Below, piece by piece: positions 3,003-6,578 of a DNA stretch of 6,578 nucleotides. Positions within the stretch are counted from its first letter, which is position 1. Each line of letters begins with the position of its first letter. This DNA is from a virus. Location: IMG/VR virus record IMGVR_UViG_3300022493_000042, positions 1 to 6,578 of that record, one strand, 5' to 3'. The notes beneath the pieces are model-generated. The model was not told the DNA's origin and ran no database searches. It saw only the letters and a list, made by a program, of their open reading frames with translations. Position numbers and translations under genes: made by a program.

Positions 3003-4124
3003 ATGGCACTCCTTGAAACAGGAATAACTGCGGGCACCTCCTTAATTGGAGGTGTCCTCGGCTATTTTGGACAAAAATCTGCGAATGCAGAAGCTCTCAA
3101 GCGAATGCGAGAGCAAAACGATTTCGCTGAGCGAATGTGGAATAAAGGTAACGAATATAACACTCCTTACGAGCAACGTAAGAGGTACGAACTCGCTGGT
3201 ATTAATCCGTATCTCGCTCTTGGAAATATTCAGGCTGGTAATGCTCAAGGGAGCGTTACCCCCGCTCCTCCTGCTCCTGTTGGAAACGCTGGTGCGTTTC
3301 TTGGTTCAGGTGCAAATCAGGCTGTAAATGCTTACTTGCAGAATCAGCTTATATCCTCTCAGGTTGAGAAAAATCTTGCCGATGCCGACGCTGTGCGTAC
3401 TGATACTCCCTTTATCGGTCGTCGCAATGAGGCGGATATCGCCTCTACGGAAGCAAGCACGGAGAATACTCGTGCTAAAACTGATTTGGATAGAGCGAAT
3501 ACGCTTGTTGCTACGGCTAATCTTGACCGTCTTAAACAGATGACCCCTGTAGAAGTACAGTTAATGCAGGCTAACGTGGAAAATGTTACTGCTAATACGT
3601 CTCTTACCAAGTTGCAGGAGAAGATACAAGATTGGGAGTTCCGCTATATTAAGCCCCTGGAGGCTCAGGAGATTAAAGCACGTATCTCTCAAGCCTATGC
3701 GACTATTGGTTATCTTGTGGCTCAGCAACGTTTATCCGTTGCTCAGGCTGGTTTGGTTGCTAAAATGACGCTTACGGAAATTCAGCGAGAAAAAGGTGTC
3801 CGCTTGGATAATATGCTTAAGCAAGACGACTTCTCTCGCCGTGATGTAGACTTTTGGACTGAAATGGAGAATAAGCGTGCACAGACTAAGTACCTTAACT
3901 CTCAGTCCGATAAGACTGATGACGATAATGAACGTGCTTGGATGGGTTTCGTTATGGATTTATTTAGTACAGGTGCTTCTATGGCTATGCCTGCTCCTTT
4001 TGGTGTTGGTCCTGGTGCAGCTGGTTTTACTGGAGGTATCCCTAAAACAGGTACATTCCGTACTCCTCCGCCTGCTCCTCGTCCTACTCCTCCTCGTCCT
4101 CGAGGTATGCCTAATCGTAGATAG
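3003..4124 (+). CDS. VP2: Minor capsid / DNA pilot protein VP2 (H-like), 373 aa
   Basis: The motif NEYNTPYEQRKRYELAGINPYLALGN matches the conserved VP2 signature of gokushovirus-like phages. A long Ala/Gln/Thr-rich predicted coiled-coil lies in the middle, and a Gly- and Pro-rich basic C-terminus (PPPAPRPTPPRPRGMPNRR) follows. Confidence 0.85.
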   Translation: MALLETGITAGTSLIGGVLGYFGQKSANAEALKRMREQNDFAERMWNKGNEYNTPYEQRKRYELAGINPYLALGNIQAGNAQGSVTPAPPAPVGNAGAFLGSGANQAVNAYLQNQLISSQVEKNLADADAVRTDTPFIGRRNEADIASTEASTENTRAKTDLDRANTLVATANLDRLKQMTPVEVQLMQANVENVTANTSLTKLQEKIQDWEFRYIKPLEAQEIKARISQAYATIGYLVAQQRLSVAQAGLVAKMTLTEIQREKGVRLDNMLKQDDFSRRDVDFWTEMENKRAQTKYLNSQSDKTDDDNERAWMGFVMDLFSTGASMAMPAPFGVGPGAAGFTGGIPKTGTFRTPPPAPRPTPPRPRGMPNRR

Positions 4125-4125
4125 T

Positions 4126-4251
4126 ATGCTTCTGTATATCGTCTCCTCGGTGCTCTTTGTAGCTCTCGTCTTCGGTATCTCGTGTGCCTGGTGTAGTGCG
4201 CTCTCTAACTGCTATGCCAAGAGTGCAGACCCCCCTAAACCGACTGCATAG
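4126..4251 (+). CDS. 41-aa single-transmembrane peptide (MLLYIVSSVLFVALVFGISCAWCSALSNCYAKSADPPKPTA). Possible membrane or lysis accessory protein.
   Basis: The ATG lies 1 nt after the VP2 stop (TAGtATG), i.e. translationally coupled. About 25 consecutive hydrophobic residues are followed by a short polar tail. The stop is immediately followed by a hairpin. Translated by hand from the sequence; it is the real tail of the otherwise spurious track ORF 3877..4251. Confidence 0.35.
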   Translation: MLLYIVSSVLFVALVFGISCAWCSALSNCYAKSADPPKPTA

Positions 4252-4253
4252 CC

Positions 4254-4269
4254 CGTAACTCACGTTACG
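4254..4269 (+). terminator. Short hairpin CGTAAC-tcac-GTTACG (6-bp stem, 4-nt loop) 3 nt after the last structural-gene stop. Possible transcript end or processing structure.
   Basis: A perfect 6-bp inverted repeat is seen directly. No U-tract follows it, so it is not a canonical intrinsic terminator. Confidence 0.2.
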
Positions 4270-4350
4270 TTCGGAGCGTACTGCCCCGACTATCATCCAT
4301 CTAACTGCTCGTACCTGTCGTTTGACCCCCTAAAGTCACTGCGGTATAAA

Positions 4351-4415
4351 AGAGGTATAGGCGTATGACAATAAGCGACCAAAGGGAAGCGCCATTGCCA
4401 TACGAATATACCTCT
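4351..4415. repeat. Long imperfect inverted repeat: AGAGGTATAGGCGTATG (4351-4367) pairs with CATACGAATATACCTCT (4399-4415), 15/17 bp, around a ~31-nt loop. GGTATA / TATACC direct repeats sit within each arm.
   Basis: Seen directly. Arm 1 contains GGTATA twice (4344-4349 and 4354-4359). Arm 2 contains TATACC twice (4407-4412 and 4415-4420). It lies in the only sizeable non-coding region of the genome. Confidence 0.55.
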
Positions 4416-4514
4416 ATACCTTTGCGGTGCTTTAGTGGACAAATGCCAGGTACACGCTATTAGATGATAGTCGTGCAGTAGCTTCGGAGTTGCCCCTGAT
4501 GTTTCCCATTTCTC

Positions 4515-4550
4515 GGCGCAATAACGTAGTGCGCCCTACAAGCTTGATAT
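4515..4550 (+). promoter_or_regulatory. GC hairpin GGCGC-aataacgtagt-GCGCC (4515-4535) followed by CTTGATAT (4543-4550), which resembles the phiX174 gene A nick-site core CAACTTG^ATATT. Candidate Rep recognition or nick site.
   Basis: A perfect 5-bp GC stem, and an 8-nt identity to the phiX174 origin core. An 8-mer match in 6.5 kb is not by itself significant. Confidence 0.25.
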
Positions 4551-4612
4551 CTCTAAGGAAACATCATAACAGTCTAACCTACCCCCCTCGGAAATAGCCA
4601 CTTATAAAAACG

Positions 4613-4645
4613 TTTGGCGTTTCCGAGAAAAAGTATATATCTTTG
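4613..4645 (+). promoter_or_regulatory. Bacteroidetes-type promoter candidate: TTTG (-33-like, 4613-4616), 21-nt spacer, TAtcTTTG (-7 consensus TAnnTTTG, 4638-4645), just upstream of the lysozyme ATG at 4650.
   Basis: Motif spacing matches the sigma-A(Bfr) promoter architecture. No gene in the genome has a Shine-Dalgarno sequence upstream of its start. A second TAccTTTG lies at 4417-4424. Confidence 0.3.
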
Positions 4646-4649
4646 CGCT

Positions 4650-5186
4650 ATGGAATTGCTCGCTACCTATATAGACCAGCTGAAAGCCTTTGAGGGCTTT
4701 CGTTCTATGGCTTACCTCCCAAAAGGTGAGCCTGCGTCTGAGTATCTAACCATTGGTTATGGTACACGCCTGCCAAGGACAAAAGCTCTTGCGCTGTCTC
4801 CTATGGATGAGCAAGATGCGTCCTACTATCTTAATCAGTCTCTTTCTGAGATTACAAAATTTGTCCGTAGTTCTTTGCAGGCTATACCTTATACGCTCTC
4901 AGACGCTCAGTTTACTGCCCTGGTAGACTTTTGTTATAACTGTGGCACAGGCAACTATAAGCGTTCCACTCTGTATAAGATACTCAAGACTGTACGCTTT
5001 ACTGATGAAGATTTGAGACTTCATCCTCGTGATGAGTATGTTTCGGCAAAGGTTGAGGCTATTTGCTCAGAGTTTATGCGGTGGAACAAGAGCGGAGGCA
5101 AAGTCCTCCCAGGTCTTGTGACCCGCTGTAATTGGCGTGCCTACTGCTGGCGTTCTCGTGCTGTTGATTCACTCTATGCTAAATAG
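4650..5186 (+). CDS. Phage lysozyme, GH24 family (P22 gp19 / T4 e-like endolysin), about 178 aa from ATG 4650
   Basis: IDQLKAFEGFRSMAYL...EYLTIGYGT carries the catalytic Glu and the TIGYG motif. LSDAQFTALVDFCYNCGTGNYKRSTLYKIL and FMRWNKSGGKVLPGLVTRC match the conserved C-terminal blocks of P22/lambda-family lysozymes (F.RWNKAGGKVL.GL.RRR). There is no N-terminal signal or SAR segment. The TTG at 4614 given by the track is an unlikely start; the ATG at 4650 aligns with the family N-terminus. Confidence 0.88.
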   Translation: MELLATYIDQLKAFEGFRSMAYLPKGEPASEYLTIGYGTRLPRTKALALSPMDEQDASYYLNQSLSEITKFVRSSLQAIPYTLSDAQFTALVDFCYNCGTGNYKRSTLYKILKTVRFTDEDLRLHPRDEYVSAKVEAICSEFMRWNKSGGKVLPGLVTRCNWRAYCWRSRAVDSLYAK

Positions 5187-5188
5187 AT

Positions 5189-6578
5189 ATGTCTGAGTTC
5201 TCTTTATACGGTTGTTTTGCTCCGAGGAAGGTGTTTAACAAATACCTCGGTCGTGAAATTGTCGCTAATTGCGGAAAGTGTGCATATTGTCGCTCGCTCC
5301 GCTCTTTTGACCTTACCAGCCGTGTACAAAGAGAATTTGTAAATCAGGGTGCAAATACTGCACTCTTTATAACTTTGACTTATGACAACGACCACCTCCC
5401 TGTTTATCAGTACAACGGGCGTTCCCGCAAATGGCATTCAAACTGTGGTTATCCCGACTTCGGTGATATCCCCGAACAGTACGTGTCCGATTATCCCGCT
5501 CCCGTAGGTTATGATATTGATGCTAAAATGCCACTGCGTGCGCTCGGCACTCGCTCGGCTTCACGCTTTAAGATGCGCCCTGCGTTCGCTCATCTTTGCT
5601 ACCCCGATGTGCAAAAGTACATTAGCCTGTTGCGTGCTAAGTTTTTTGCTATCTGCGCTCGCTACGATGATAGCCCTTTACATATCGCTTACGAGAATAC
5701 TGATTTGACCTATGAGACATTTTCCCTGCGTTACGCTGTGTGCGGAGAATACGGACCCTCTTCGTTCCGCCCGCATTATCACGTTATTATTTGGCTCAAC
5801 CACCAGGCAAACGATAGACAACTTTCAGCACTCTCGCAAATCTTTTCTAAGAGTTGGACGCTTGGTAATATCGATGTGCAGACCGTTACCTCGGATGGTG
5901 TTTCAGGATATTTGGCTGACTACGTTACAGGCGTTAATGGCATTCCGCCTATACTACAAGGTAGAAGAGTACGTCCCTGCTTTCATTTCTCGCAAAGCCC
6001 TACTATCGGTATGCTCCGCTTGGGTGAAGATGAGGTACAGAAAATACTCTTTACAGGAGATGCTATCAGACGTAGATTTGATGACAGACGACAGTCTGTT
6101 ATTGTTGAGGAGCTTCCCCTTGCGACTCTCAATAAGTACTTCCCAAAGTGTAAAGGATATAGCACAGATGATTTTGCGCGCCTCCGTTATGTGTATGGAT
6201 ACGCTTACCGTTACTTTCAGGAGCGAGGACTTACCCACCGCCCCGATGAGGTAGATGCTCTTCGTCTTGTAGATGTCCCCTTTCCTGTGCGGTTGATGTC
6301 TGCTGATGCGTCAAGATATTACCGTGTTGCTCCTCGTCTCCTCGGCTCGTCTTTCAATTTCCCCGACAATGTTCGTGCTGGTCTTTGGACGTGGTGCCGT
6401 GCAGATAGGTACGCTTCGCTACAGTGTTATAGGATGTGTGTTAAGTATGGTATTACGCCCGATGTCTACATATATCAGTTGCGGGCTATTTACTCTCGCA
6501 TACACTCTCGCAAACTTGGTCGGTTTTACGACTGGTGCAACGATCACCCCGATAATTTGCCTCAGGCTATTAATGTAG
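5189..6578 (+). CDS. VP4: Replication initiation protein Rep (VP4 / gene A-like, HUH rolling-circle endonuclease), N-terminal 463 codons. The ORF runs through the window end and continues at 1..384, about 548 aa in total.
   Basis: Translated by hand: MSEFSLYGCFAPRKVFNKYLGREIVANCGKCAYCRSL...ALFITLTYDNDHLP (motif I-like), RPHYHVIIW (HUH motif, 5774-5782), and GYLADYVTG (two Tyr spaced i, i+4 as in phiX174 A Y343/Y347, 5909-5923). It is the first ATG after an in-frame stop at 5180-5182 and starts 2 nt after the lysozyme stop. The track omits it because no stop is reached inside the window. Confidence 0.88.
   Translation, partial: MSEFSLYGCFAPRKVFNKYLGREIVANCGKCAYCRSLRSFDLTSRVQREFVNQGANTALFITLTYDNDHLPVYQYNGRSRKWHSNCGYPDFGDIPEQYVSDYPAPVGYDIDAKMPLRALGTRSASRFKMRPAFAHLCYPDVQKYISLLRAKFFAICARYDDSPLHIAYENTDLTYETFSLRYAVCGEYGPSSFRPHYHVIIWLNHQANDRQLSALSQIFSKSWTLGNIDVQTVTSDGVSGYLADYVTGVNGIPPILQGRRVRPCFHFSQSPTIGMLRLGEDEVQKILFTGDAIRRRFDDRRQSVIVEELPLATLNKYFPKCKGYSTDDFARLRYVYGYAYRYFQERGLTHRPDEVDALRLVDVPFPVRLMSADASRYYRVAPRLLGSSFNFPDNVRAGLWTWCRADRYASLQCYRMCVKYGITPDVYIYQLRAIYSRIHSRKLGRFYDWCNDHPDNLPQAINV
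6452..6578. repeat. Second copy of the 127-nt terminal redundancy (equals 1..127). Marks the circular junction.
   Basis: Exact identity to 1..127. Confidence 0.95.

Follow-up and report, generated by a model that had tools for sequence, protein, structure and literature searches.

The window, that is, the whole 6,578-nt stretch of DNA that was analysed, is a complete circular microvirus genome of 6451 nt plus a 127-nt assembly overlap, and it belongs to a clade that is Alpavirinae-like and comes from the human mouth. All genes lie on one strand. As originally predicted, they leave only a single sizeable non-coding stretch, at 4252-4649; given a small conserved ORF at 4126-4251 (+ strand), it is the only one longer than about 11 nt. 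This ORF, which forms the left border of the region, encodes 41 aa with one predicted membrane helix. Its translation is conserved in six relatives, it has no Pfam match and it is without annotation in OR148992.1. The right border is the ATG at 4650 of a lysozyme gene with a match to Pfam Phage_lysozyme. The original prediction placed a structured cis-acting control region directly upstream of lysozyme-Rep, and both location and structure are supported by the results below. The suggestion that the element might be a bidirectional regulator finds no support: the genes share a single orientation, and beside the hairpin the minus strand has just one ORF (4296-4111), which is frameshifted or stopped in relatives; an antisense early gene transcribed from a single-stranded DNA promoter was rejected for the same broken frame. 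We also rejected an extension of the 41-aa ORF by read-through into the left arm of the hairpin, since that frame is not conserved, and a small hairpin at 4254-4269, which is broken in three relatives (L001, L002, L003). Scans of 4000-4800 for sigma-70 promoters and for intrinsic terminators (a short G+C-rich stem plus a T run) found none of either, and a scan of the whole window with the Rfam 15 covariance models (E <= 1) returned no matches.

The stem that had been noticed in this region is real: its arms, 4351-4367 and 4399-4415, form 15 of 17 possible pairs and enclose a loop of 31 nt. A repeat finder extends these arms to 22 nt (4351-4372 / 4394-4415, 86% complementary), and the stem at 4351-4415 is only the apex of an imperfect, rod-like hairpin of 215 nt (4272-4486, + strand), with a left arm at 4272-4377, an apical loop at 4378-4389 and a right arm at 4390-4486. 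The rod comprises approximately 94 pairs including G.T, 78 of which are Watson-Crick. Folded as + strand DNA it has a minimum free energy of -55.1 kcal/mol, compared with -23.3 +/- 3.3 kcal/mol for shuffled sequence (z = -9.8; none of 200 shuffles was equally stable). The minus strand folds nearly equally well (-54.5 kcal/mol), and the difference between strands is no larger than 5 kcal/mol with DNA parameters; the + strand is the more stable in six of seven relatives, with the bias reversed in L002. In Watson-Crick-only folds, isolated 1x1 mismatches are G/T in 17 cases and A/C in four, and an alignment of seven hairpin sequences contains about 41 G.T cells against about three C.A cells, with G.T making up approximately 8% of paired cells. 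We count the mismatch bias and the stability of the + strand in favour of a role in that strand, but note that an excess of G.T over A.C is equally compatible with a structure in + sense RNA.

The hairpin is a real, selected structure. Among seven close relatives, 75 pairs are kept, 17 are compensatory and 97.7% of cells are paired (slid controls: 0-2). Across 11 relatives, with capsid identity down to 64%, 62 consensus pairs are kept with 26 compensatory double changes and 94.5% of cells paired, compared to 5-11 compensatory pairs when the alignment is slid. Sequence conservation is uneven along the rod: the middle of the left arm (4296-4350, + strand), which contains CTAACTGCTCGTAC, CCCCCTAA and CACTGCGG, has a mean pairwise identity of 92%, against 82% for its pairing partner on the right arm. 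Conservation extends to both arms in certain blocks, such as GCTCGTACC/GGTACACGC, which has a fixed 2x2 internal loop. The apical loop is variable and holds no nick-like motif. Sister clades carry different hairpins at the same position (either a pair, each about 80 nt long, or several short hairpins), none with a promoter box. Searched as a 16-mer and as a gapped pattern, the hairpin sequence matches only related microviruses and one CRISPR spacer; it has no plasmid match, and only three phage relatives are in GenBank. One further hit from a metagenome pattern scan, L176, was a chance match, as were most matches to the 15-mer GGAAACATCATAACA.

The original prediction had likened the two hexamer copies in each arm of the stem to iterons and to binding sites for Rep or a regulator. 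The hexamers exist (GGTATA at 4343-4348 and 4354-4359, TATACC at 4407-4412 and 4415-4420), although one copy on each side lies outside the arms in which they had been placed. When relatives are aligned, the pairing of the stem is conserved but the apical hexamer is not conserved in sequence: most lineages carry unrelated yet complementary sequence at this position (e.g. TTGTCA/TGCAAC or GCTATC/TGTAGC), and the basal copy co-varies as base pairs, from GGTATA/TATACC to GGTGTA/TACACC. What is conserved is therefore the pairing and not the repeated word, and the iteron reading fails because the apical copy has no sequence conservation. Nor did we find conserved repeated words or a nick motif in the loop, as in iteron-type Rep origins of CRESS-DNA viruses and some RC plasmids.

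The 3' arm of the hairpin contains a promoter-like pair of boxes of Bacteroidota type, which we call P1 (4394-4424, + strand). Its ATTG box lies in the apical stem at 4394-4397 and is followed, after a spacer of 19 nt, by TACCTTTG at 4417-4424, the TTT of which (4421-4423) forms a conserved 3-nt bulge. The + strand of the genome has just four TAnnTTTG sites, P1 among them, and the arrangement ATTG-N18-20-TA(C/G)CTTTG with an unpaired TTT is kept in nine of nine relatives scanned, at capsid identities down to 55%; the spacer keeps its length of 18-20 nt and varies in sequence. In L001, L005 and L011, CACCTTTG replaces the -7 box, its first T having become C with compensation on the opposite arm, so that pairing outranks the motif at this site. 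Compared to the -33/-7 promoter consensus of Bacteroidota (PMC7366714), the -33 box is off (ATTG rather than TTTG); not every member of the Bacteroidota shows a recognisable -33 motif (PMC7366714). Agreement with a consensus does not in itself prove binding. Because the boxes lie on the 3' arm, the template would be the viral strand, namely the left arm, as a complementary-strand primer requires, and we count the greater conservation of this would-be template arm over its partner in favour of priming. There is no conserved gene on the strand that would be transcribed, so an RNA made from the hairpin would be a primer only.

A second pair of boxes, P2 (4613-4645, + strand), has TTTG at 4613-4616 and, after 21 nt, TATCTTTG at 4638-4645, and ends 4 nt before the lysozyme ATG. 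Equivalent TAnnTTTG sites occur upstream of the next gene in the window clade and, among the sister-clade and gut loci that we examined, in most. The window clade has P1 in addition to P2, whereas sister clades have P2 only; in one locus (L184) P1 and P2 both read TAGCTTTG. Given that the hairpins of sister clades lack a promoter box, a mechanism that relies on RNA polymerase would, if real, be specific to the clade. The -33 box of P2 is overlapped by a further hairpin, the inverted repeat CTCGGAAA ... TTTCCGAG (4587-4627, + strand; fold z = -3.4), which has a conserved loop (TAGCCACTT ... TTTGGCG) and in which a single pair has switched by compensation, from G/C to C/G, in L002 and L003.

Between the hairpin and P2, starting 10 nt 3' of the hairpin end (4486 to 4497), lies a Y-shaped element (4497-4566, + strand; fold z = -3.7) that is made up of an outer stem, TGATGTTTCC/GGAAACATCA (4497-4506 / 4557-4566), and an inner hairpin at 4515-4535. 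Its single-stranded 3' junction carries CTTGATAT at 4543-4550, a CTTGWTAT that occurs nowhere else in the genome. The analogy with phiX174, the origin sequence of which we located at 4299-4328 of gene A, makes this a probable nick site, with cleavage predicted between G4546 and A4547 (CTTG↓ATAT). The junction sequence CAAGCTTGATAT at 4539-4550 equals the phiX174 core CAACTTGATAT plus one extra base, and the Rep sequence contains HYH and YLADY, as in a two-tyrosine HUH Rep. The outer stem is 98% paired, with four of its nine pairs switched between clades. A structural descriptor of the element matches + strands only; when relaxed but required to contain CTTG, it matches the + strand in 59 of 87 related loci and the minus strand in one, and 59 of 87 genomes retain CTTG at this junction. 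The inner hairpins of two clades are out of register in the MAFFT alignment, so that covariation of the inner stem rests on descriptor matches. The original prediction had named an origin elsewhere, such as inside Rep, as evidence that would count against it. The best candidate for the Rep nick does lie elsewhere, in the separate Y element, yet this element is intergenic and not inside Rep.

Two further observations concern the left arm. A three-box direct repeat has one copy (TCTAACTGCT ... CCCCCTAA ... ACTGC; 4204-4247, + strand) inside the 3' end of the membrane ORF and another at 4300-4342 in the left arm of the hairpin; the boxes of both repeat families involved (D1 and D5) occur exactly twice in the genome at the same spacing, and both copies are found in all relatives. 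The arm also contains a protospacer (4289-4318, minus strand) that matches, at 30 of 30 positions, a spacer of a type II CRISPR array (cas9-cas1-cas2; 47-nt repeat) on a metagenomic contig, L008. The nearest named homologues of the Cas1 on this contig (61-65% identity) come from MAGs of Bacteroidales and other Bacteroidetes, and the spacer match ties the clade to a Bacteroidales-like host. Together with a sister-clade prophage in a Bacteroidaceae MAG and the occurrence of BMV proviruses in Bacteroidales (PMC3091885), we count it in favour of a host in the Bacteroidota.

How might these elements work together? We propose, by analogy with M13 and with the sso-dso pair of rolling-circle plasmids, and with a confidence that stops a little short of even, that the region is an intergenic control region in which the hairpin would be the complementary-strand origin and the Y element the Rep origin, with P2 placed before lysozyme-Rep. 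We infer these functions from the structures, their conservation and covariation, the positions of motifs, and synteny. The hairpin would act while the packaged (+) genome is single-stranded, and its likeliest role is that of the site where a host enzyme lays the primer that converts incoming single-stranded DNA to the double-stranded replicative form. It is an extensive imperfect hairpin in the packaged strand, like RNA-polymerase-dependent single-strand origins, and at 4486 it ends upstream of the candidate nick at 4546/4547, which is where an sso would be expected. How the primer would be made is a more doubtful matter. One possibility, to which we give rather limited credence, is that the hairpin is a single-stranded DNA promoter for the Bacteroidota primary sigma (-33/-7), from which host RNA polymerase primes the complementary strand. 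In this scenario, the folded stem would rebuild a duplex promoter (ATTG and, after a spacer of 18-20 nt, a TAnnTTTG already melted at its TTT), to which RNA polymerase would bind, transcribing toward the base of the stem on the conserved left arm as template; the replicative polymerase would then extend the resulting RNA. The same sequence might also be an early promoter on the replicative form. For its part, the Y element would present CTTG↓ATAT in a single-stranded junction to the two-tyrosine HUH Rep, and P2 would drive lysozyme-Rep.

The main rival to a complementary-strand origin is a role at the RNA level, which we regard as unlikely but worth weighing in full. Imagine that the hairpin worked in + sense read-through transcripts from the capsid-pilot genes, as a 3' stabiliser, a non-canonical terminator, or an RNase III site parting late from lysozyme-Rep messages. 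Its location, 20 nt past the last stop codon of the late operon and ahead of the next promoter-like site, would suit such a role, as would a very stable fold as RNA (about -108 kcal/mol) and the excess of G.U over A.C; moreover, phiX174 mRNAs end at intergenic hairpins. However, what comes after the hairpin is GCTTCGGAGTTGCCCC and not a T/U tract, the terminator scan came back empty, Rfam provides no match, and G.T cells are only a small share of paired cells. A role in RNA also leaves unexplained the promoter-like boxes, their fixed spacer, the invariant TTT bulge and the asymmetric conservation of the left arm. In a further rival, P1 would simply serve as a promoter in the double-stranded replicative form, regulated by cruciform extrusion or a repeat-binding protein, and would give lysozyme-Rep a long, structured leader that includes the Y element. 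In its favour, P1 comes about as close to the Bacteroidota consensus as P2 does and points toward the genes. Yet P2 is already present directly before the genes in every clade, a promoter in duplex DNA needs no complementary arm, even though 26 pairs co-vary, and a strand-biased spectrum of mismatches is not predicted for duplex DNA, all of which makes this an improbable account.

We think it equally improbable that the hairpin belongs to the plus-strand origin, as first suggested, be it as a site for Rep or a regulator with GGTATA/TATACC iterons or as an origin enhancer. It adjoins the probable nick site, the blocks conserved on both arms around the 2x2 loop could be protein contacts, and the three-box direct repeat also counts in its favour. 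But the apical hexamer is conserved in pairing only, the apical loop varies, the hairpins of sister clades are unrelated despite a homologous Rep and Y element, and some 94 pairs kept by covariation far exceed what a binding site needs. Even less probable, in our view, is a signal for packaging, condensation or ejection, with the duplex rod either tagging the genome for encapsidation or guiding it through the conduit of the pilot protein. The element would act in the + strand, which is the packaged strand, and M13 has its packaging signal, a hairpin of some 78 nt, in a comparable intergenic region; however, Microviridae, which couple packaging to Rep-driven synthesis, are for that reason not known to require such a signal, and the form of the element is not conserved across clades that have capsid and pilot proteins in common. 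A last possibility is that host XerC/D uses the hairpin as a folded attP of the CTXphi kind, in which inverted dif-like sites (11-6-11) form the stem, or that the hairpin is a MITE or some other mobile insertion. Related Bacteroidetes microviruses do integrate at dif-like sites, some of them with two (PMC3091885), and the sister-clade prophage L178 is flanked by TTATCATAATGTCCATTA. Against this, the dif-like motif CATAA-N6-TTAT has no match in 4252-4649, the att of the sister clade is a short site about 100 nt downstream of the Y element and not a hairpin, and the window clade yielded no prophage (L184, considered as one, was rejected as a scaffold join of bacterial and viral contigs through poly-C and an N gap). 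A MITE would be expected to have multiple dispersed copies in host or other genomes, and the pattern searches gave none, with matches to the hairpin sequence only in these microviruses and the one spacer. We consider both versions very improbable.

Alpavirinae-like microviruses rank with the commonest phages in the mouth and gut of humans, and as far as we could find no cis-acting replication signal has been mapped for any of them. The region described here provides candidates for both origins, the 215-nt hairpin for the complementary strand and, for Rep, a Y-shaped CTTG element that is common across the subfamily. If the hairpin is indeed a single-stranded DNA promoter, it would, together with the Y element, define the replication origins of Alpavirinae-like phages, and would place a mechanism of the M13/Frpo type in the Microviridae and in Bacteroidota, where no single-stranded DNA promoter has been described, making this possibly the first example of Bacteroidota type. 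Such elements are needed to build minimal replicons, phagemids and synthetic genomes for Bacteroidales and Prevotella.

Among known systems, phiX174 and G4 (Bullavirinae) belong to the same virus family and start the complementary strand at intergenic hairpins (n'/PriA primosome assembly in one case, the G4 primase origin in the other). The minus-strand signals of phiX174 are hairpins of 44-55 nt that lie in the F-G region and for which the recognising protein is PriA or DnaG rather than RNA polymerase, and the hairpin reported here is four times longer. The core of the Y element resembles the 30-nt origin in phiX174 gene A (CAACTTG↓ATATTAATAAC), but that plus origin lies inside the gene and needs no Y-shaped fold, whereas our candidate is intergenic. 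Use of intergenic hairpins for minus-strand initiation has been established or proposed for phiX174 and small microviruses (PMC9865509). In particular, reekeekee- and roodoodoo-microviruses have predicted hairpins with compensatory substitutions between the structural genes and Rep, which were proposed as candidates for negative-strand initiation (PMC9865509). These differ from ours in being 13-64 nt long, with no promoter-like boxes or adjacent Y element reported, and in coming from unrelated clades and hosts.

In form, the hairpin is like the ssoA, Frpo and ssi elements, which are imperfect palindromes of 150-300 nt, strand-specific and active only as single-stranded DNA. The sso is located just upstream of the dso in most RC plasmids (PMC4595007), and Frpo is a hairpin promoter for priming on single-stranded DNA, the stem of which rebuilds a host promoter with unpaired bases in the melting region (PMC11541004; Masai & Arai 1997). 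The host phylum and sigma factor are different here, and the hairpin has no sequence similarity to any known sso (RSB/CS-6), PAS or Frpo. The comparison with M13/f1/fd crosses virus families and Rep lineages, sets one 215-nt rod against two shorter hairpins without sequence similarity, and pairs boxes of the Bacteroidota -33/-7 type with boxes of the -35/-10 type. In overall layout, however, the intergenic region of these phages is likewise one large non-coding region upstream of the Rep gene (gene II in Ff) that holds all cis elements, and it has imperfect hairpins of the packaged strand (B and C in Ff) adjoining the nick site, much as the rod here adjoins the candidate one. The M13 hairpins mimic a promoter, from which host RNA polymerase makes the primer.

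The window is a complete circular microvirus genome with a unit of 6451 nt, the exact 127-nt direct repeat at its ends (1-127 = 6452-6578) being assembly overlap. Every gene lies on the + strand, in the order capsid (387-2366; Pfam Phage_F), two small ORFs, pilot protein (3003-4124), a conserved 41-aa membrane ORF (4126-4251), the non-coding region (4252-4649), lysozyme (4650-5186; Pfam Phage_lysozyme, PF00959, E = 1e-24) and, last, Rep (REP_ORF2-G2P). Read in one pass, Rep appears frameshifted; correctly joined, it is an intact 548-aa ORF that runs from 5189 to the end of the unit genome and on to 384. Because the packaged strand of Microviridae has the sense of the mRNA, the + strand is the virion strand. 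The closest relative, Microvirus D_HF4_124 from human saliva (OR148992.1), is 90.7% identical to the window, and two nasopharyngeal Microviridae are ~77% identical. The paper on the closest relative leaves the non-coding region unmentioned (PMC10537320), and GenBank has no annotation within it.

Two of the flanking genes deserve comment. The 41-aa ORF begins 1 nt past the pilot gene stop, encodes a single hydrophobic helix (MLLYIVSSVLFVALVFGISCAWCSALSNCYAKSADPPKPTA) and is retained in six relatives, albeit unannotated in OR148992.1; given that the lysozyme gene follows on the far side of the non-coding region, the ORF may encode a holin-like partner in lysis. The lysozyme homologue of one GenBank relative (L001, 4295-4831) is labelled 'peptidase M15' despite its Pfam assignment to Phage_lysozyme, and another relative, L003, has no lysozyme gene at all and keeps the whole non-coding region directly before Rep.

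The original prediction placed a stem at 4351-4367/4399-4415, closed by a loop and carrying the hexamers GGTATA and TATACC in its arms; a sequence check and repeat finding confirmed these positions. This stem is the tip of one imperfect rod-like hairpin, 4272-4486, whose ~94 pairs are interrupted by small bulges and internal loops and whose minimum free energy as DNA is -55.1 kcal/mol, against -23.3 +/- 3.3 in 200 dinucleotide shuffles (z = -9.8). Homologous regions came from GenBank (L001-L003), IMG/VR (L005, L011) and metagenomes (L175), and, via capsid homologues, from a further six genomes among L179-L185 with 77-55% capsid identity. Across seven close sequences 97.7% of cells are paired in a consensus fold of 75 pairs, of which 17 carry compensatory double changes; sliding the 3' partners by 1-3 columns cuts that count to 0-2. 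With more distant relatives included (11 sequences, lowest capsid identity 64%), 62 pairs remain (94.5% of cells paired), 26 of them compensatory compared to 5-11 in slid controls. The hairpin structure is real and under selection.

The hexamers had also been called iteron-like, and the architecture likened to Rep or regulator binding sites. The basal pair co-varies as a base pair, from GGTATA/TATACC to GGTGTA/TACACC, the apical copy is swapped in other lineages for unrelated, still complementary sequence, and the apical loop varies among relatives. Since it is the pairing that relatives conserve and not the repeated word, the iteron idea is unsupported. A different, three-box direct repeat (TCTAACTGCT, N14-15, GACCCCCTAAA, N3, ACTGC) occurs at 4204-4247 and 4300-4342, 96 nt apart; the first copy lies within the small ORF, at its coding 3' end, and the second falls in the left arm of the hairpin. 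Both copies are conserved in all relatives, the sequence between boxes being unrelated; a duplication long ago or a pair of binding sites could account for them.

On which strand might the hairpin act? Both strands can fold (+ -55.1, - -54.5 kcal/mol), and the + strand fold is the more stable in six of seven relatives. In folds of the relatives restricted to Watson-Crick pairs, the isolated 1x1 mismatches comprise 17 G/T and four A/C, and the per-pair table of the 7-sequence alignment gives a tally of ~41 G.T versus ~3 C.A cells. This bias speaks against a function confined to duplex DNA or to the minus strand; it would be equally compatible with + ssDNA and + sense RNA and does not separate the two.

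Several lines of evidence agree in pointing to a host in Bacteroidota. Window positions 4289-4318 match a CRISPR spacer (L008, 1657-1686) at 30 of 30 nucleotides. The array is type II, with 14 repeats of 47 nt, beside cas2, cas1 and the end of cas9, and the nearest named homologues of its Cas1 come from Bacteroidales and other Bacteroidetes MAGs (61-65% identity); the match ties the window clade to an oral, Bacteroidales-like host. A single genomic relative, L178, came to light: a prophage of a sister clade, in a Bacteroidaceae MAG, with the dif-like repeat TTATCATAATGTCCATTA on either side (7737-7755 and 14163-14183), in the same manner as BMV proviruses (PMC3091885). An apparent window-clade prophage, L184, was rejected: it is a bacterial contig joined to a circularly permuted microvirus genome, with a scaffold join at 8373-8395 (poly-C, ten N), and host assignment from this record calls for caution.

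This host evidence justifies use of the Bacteroidota primary sigma factor consensus, TAnnTTTG at -7 and TTTG near -33 (PMC7366714). TAnnTTTG has only four + strand sites in the window genome, two of them within the non-coding region. The promoter-like pair P2 (TTTG 4613-4616, a 21-nt gap, TATCTTTG 4638-4645, + strand) matches the consensus, and a box in the corresponding position is seen across the window clade and in the majority of the sister-clade and gut loci examined. Only 4 nt separate P2 from the lysozyme ATG, and transcription from P2 would thus yield an mRNA with little or no leader, a rare type in Bacteroides, where ~3.7% of 5' UTRs are shorter than 10 nt (PMC7366714). An inverted repeat, CTCGGAAA ... 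TTTCCGAG (4587-4627), could fold as a hairpin or serve as a palindromic operator; its conserved 25-nt loop holds the P2 -33 box, and L002 and L003 show one compensatory switch, G/C to C/G.

The second pair, P1, lies on the + strand in the hairpin's 3' arm (ATTG 4394-4397 in the apical stem, a 19-nt spacer, TACCTTTG 4417-4424), with TTT 4421-4423 bulged. ATTG-N18-20-TA(C/G)CTTTG with the unpaired TTT persists in nine genomes whose capsid identity goes as low as 55%, the spacer and its pairing partner being free to change; in L184 both P1 and P2 read TAGCTTTG. Three relatives (L001, L005, L011) are exceptions and have CACCTTTG, the T-to-C change being compensated on the left arm, and the sister-clade hairpins examined have no P1-like box. 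The middle of the left arm shows 92% mean identity versus 82% for its partner. An antisense early gene driven from P1 can be excluded because the sole minus-strand ORF downstream of the putative start is broken in relatives.

Ten nucleotides after the hairpin, on the + strand, is a three-part fold, the Y element (4497-4566), made up of an outer stem (TGATGTTTCC/GGAAACATCA), an inner hairpin (4515-4535) and a single-stranded 3' junction, CTACAAGCTTGATATCTCTAA. The sole CTTGWTAT of the genome, CTTGATAT at 4543-4550, matches the phiX174 origin core, CAACTTG|ATAT (the bar marks cleavage), with one extra base. A structure-only descriptor found the Y fold on + strands only, in the window clade and in a sister clade (~40% capsid identity), whose Y stems differ in sequence; in 11 sequences the outer stem is 98% paired, with four of nine pairs switched between clades. 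A relaxed descriptor requiring junction CTTG matched the + strand of 59 of 87 related Alpavirinae-like genomes, typical gut Alpavirinae included, and the - strand of one, the inner stems having many compensatory variants. Compensatory changes are abundant in both stems, and the junction CTTG is followed by an AT-rich run (examples are L096 6467-6531, L101 4238-4307, L178 14003-14070 and L102 188-255, among many others). Rep carries HYH and YLADY, motifs to be expected in a two-tyrosine HUH nickase like the phiX174 A protein, which makes the Y element the better candidate for the Rep origin. It is probably the Rep nick origin of the whole Alpavirinae-like group, and the searchable literature yielded no earlier description of the element. 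This candidate is intergenic rather than inside Rep, whereas the phiX174 origin sequence (4299-4328) is located within gene A.

Past the pilot gene, the order of elements is identical in every clade examined: hairpin(s), Y element, a dif-like site in temperate relatives, a TAnnTTTG promoter-like site (not found at all loci) and the gene(s) leading into Rep. The hairpin is a 215-nt rod in the window clade, two ~80-nt hairpins in the sister-clade viral contigs L096 and L098, and several short ones in L178 and gut Alpavirinae. L096 and L098 each have two CATAATACCGGTTA copies downstream of the Y element, those of L098 separated by a ~400 nt insertion.

What, then, does the hairpin do? We tentatively favour, at somewhat less than even confidence, a role as a signal in the genome while it is single-stranded, most likely as the origin of the complementary strand. 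That the hairpin works as an RNA-polymerase promoter mimic is possible but doubtful. Imagine RNA polymerase on the folded single strand at P1: it would move towards the stem base, copying the left arm, and with the boxes on the 3' arm the transcript would be the complement of the viral strand, as a complementary-strand primer must be. A primase or PriA-type signal is an alternative mechanism for the same origin.

An RNA-level 3' end or processing element, which the mismatch bias would suit just as well, strikes us as unlikely. We think it improbable that the hairpin is an accessory site for Rep, a role that its place beside the Y element might suggest but against which the poor conservation of the repeated word counts; the same goes for an ordinary promoter under cruciform control, where P1 would supply the boxes and the mismatch bias counts against action purely in duplex DNA. 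A packaging or ejection signal, also compatible with a + ssDNA fold, is very unlikely, and an Xer attP or mobile element extremely so, the sister-clade att site lying ~100 nt downstream of the Y element.

What is new here is a hairpin this large and this strongly supported by covariation, the putative Bacteroidota-type promoter mimic within it, and its pairing with a Y-shaped CTTG element common to the subfamily. Returning to the favoured complementary-strand origin, intergenic hairpins are already known as minus-strand signals in phiX174 and G4 and have been proposed as such in small microviruses (PMC9865509). The intergenic region of Ff phage has the same layout as the microvirus non-coding region, as do rolling-circle plasmids, in which the single-strand origin lies just upstream of the double-strand origin and hence turns single-stranded last (PMC4595007).
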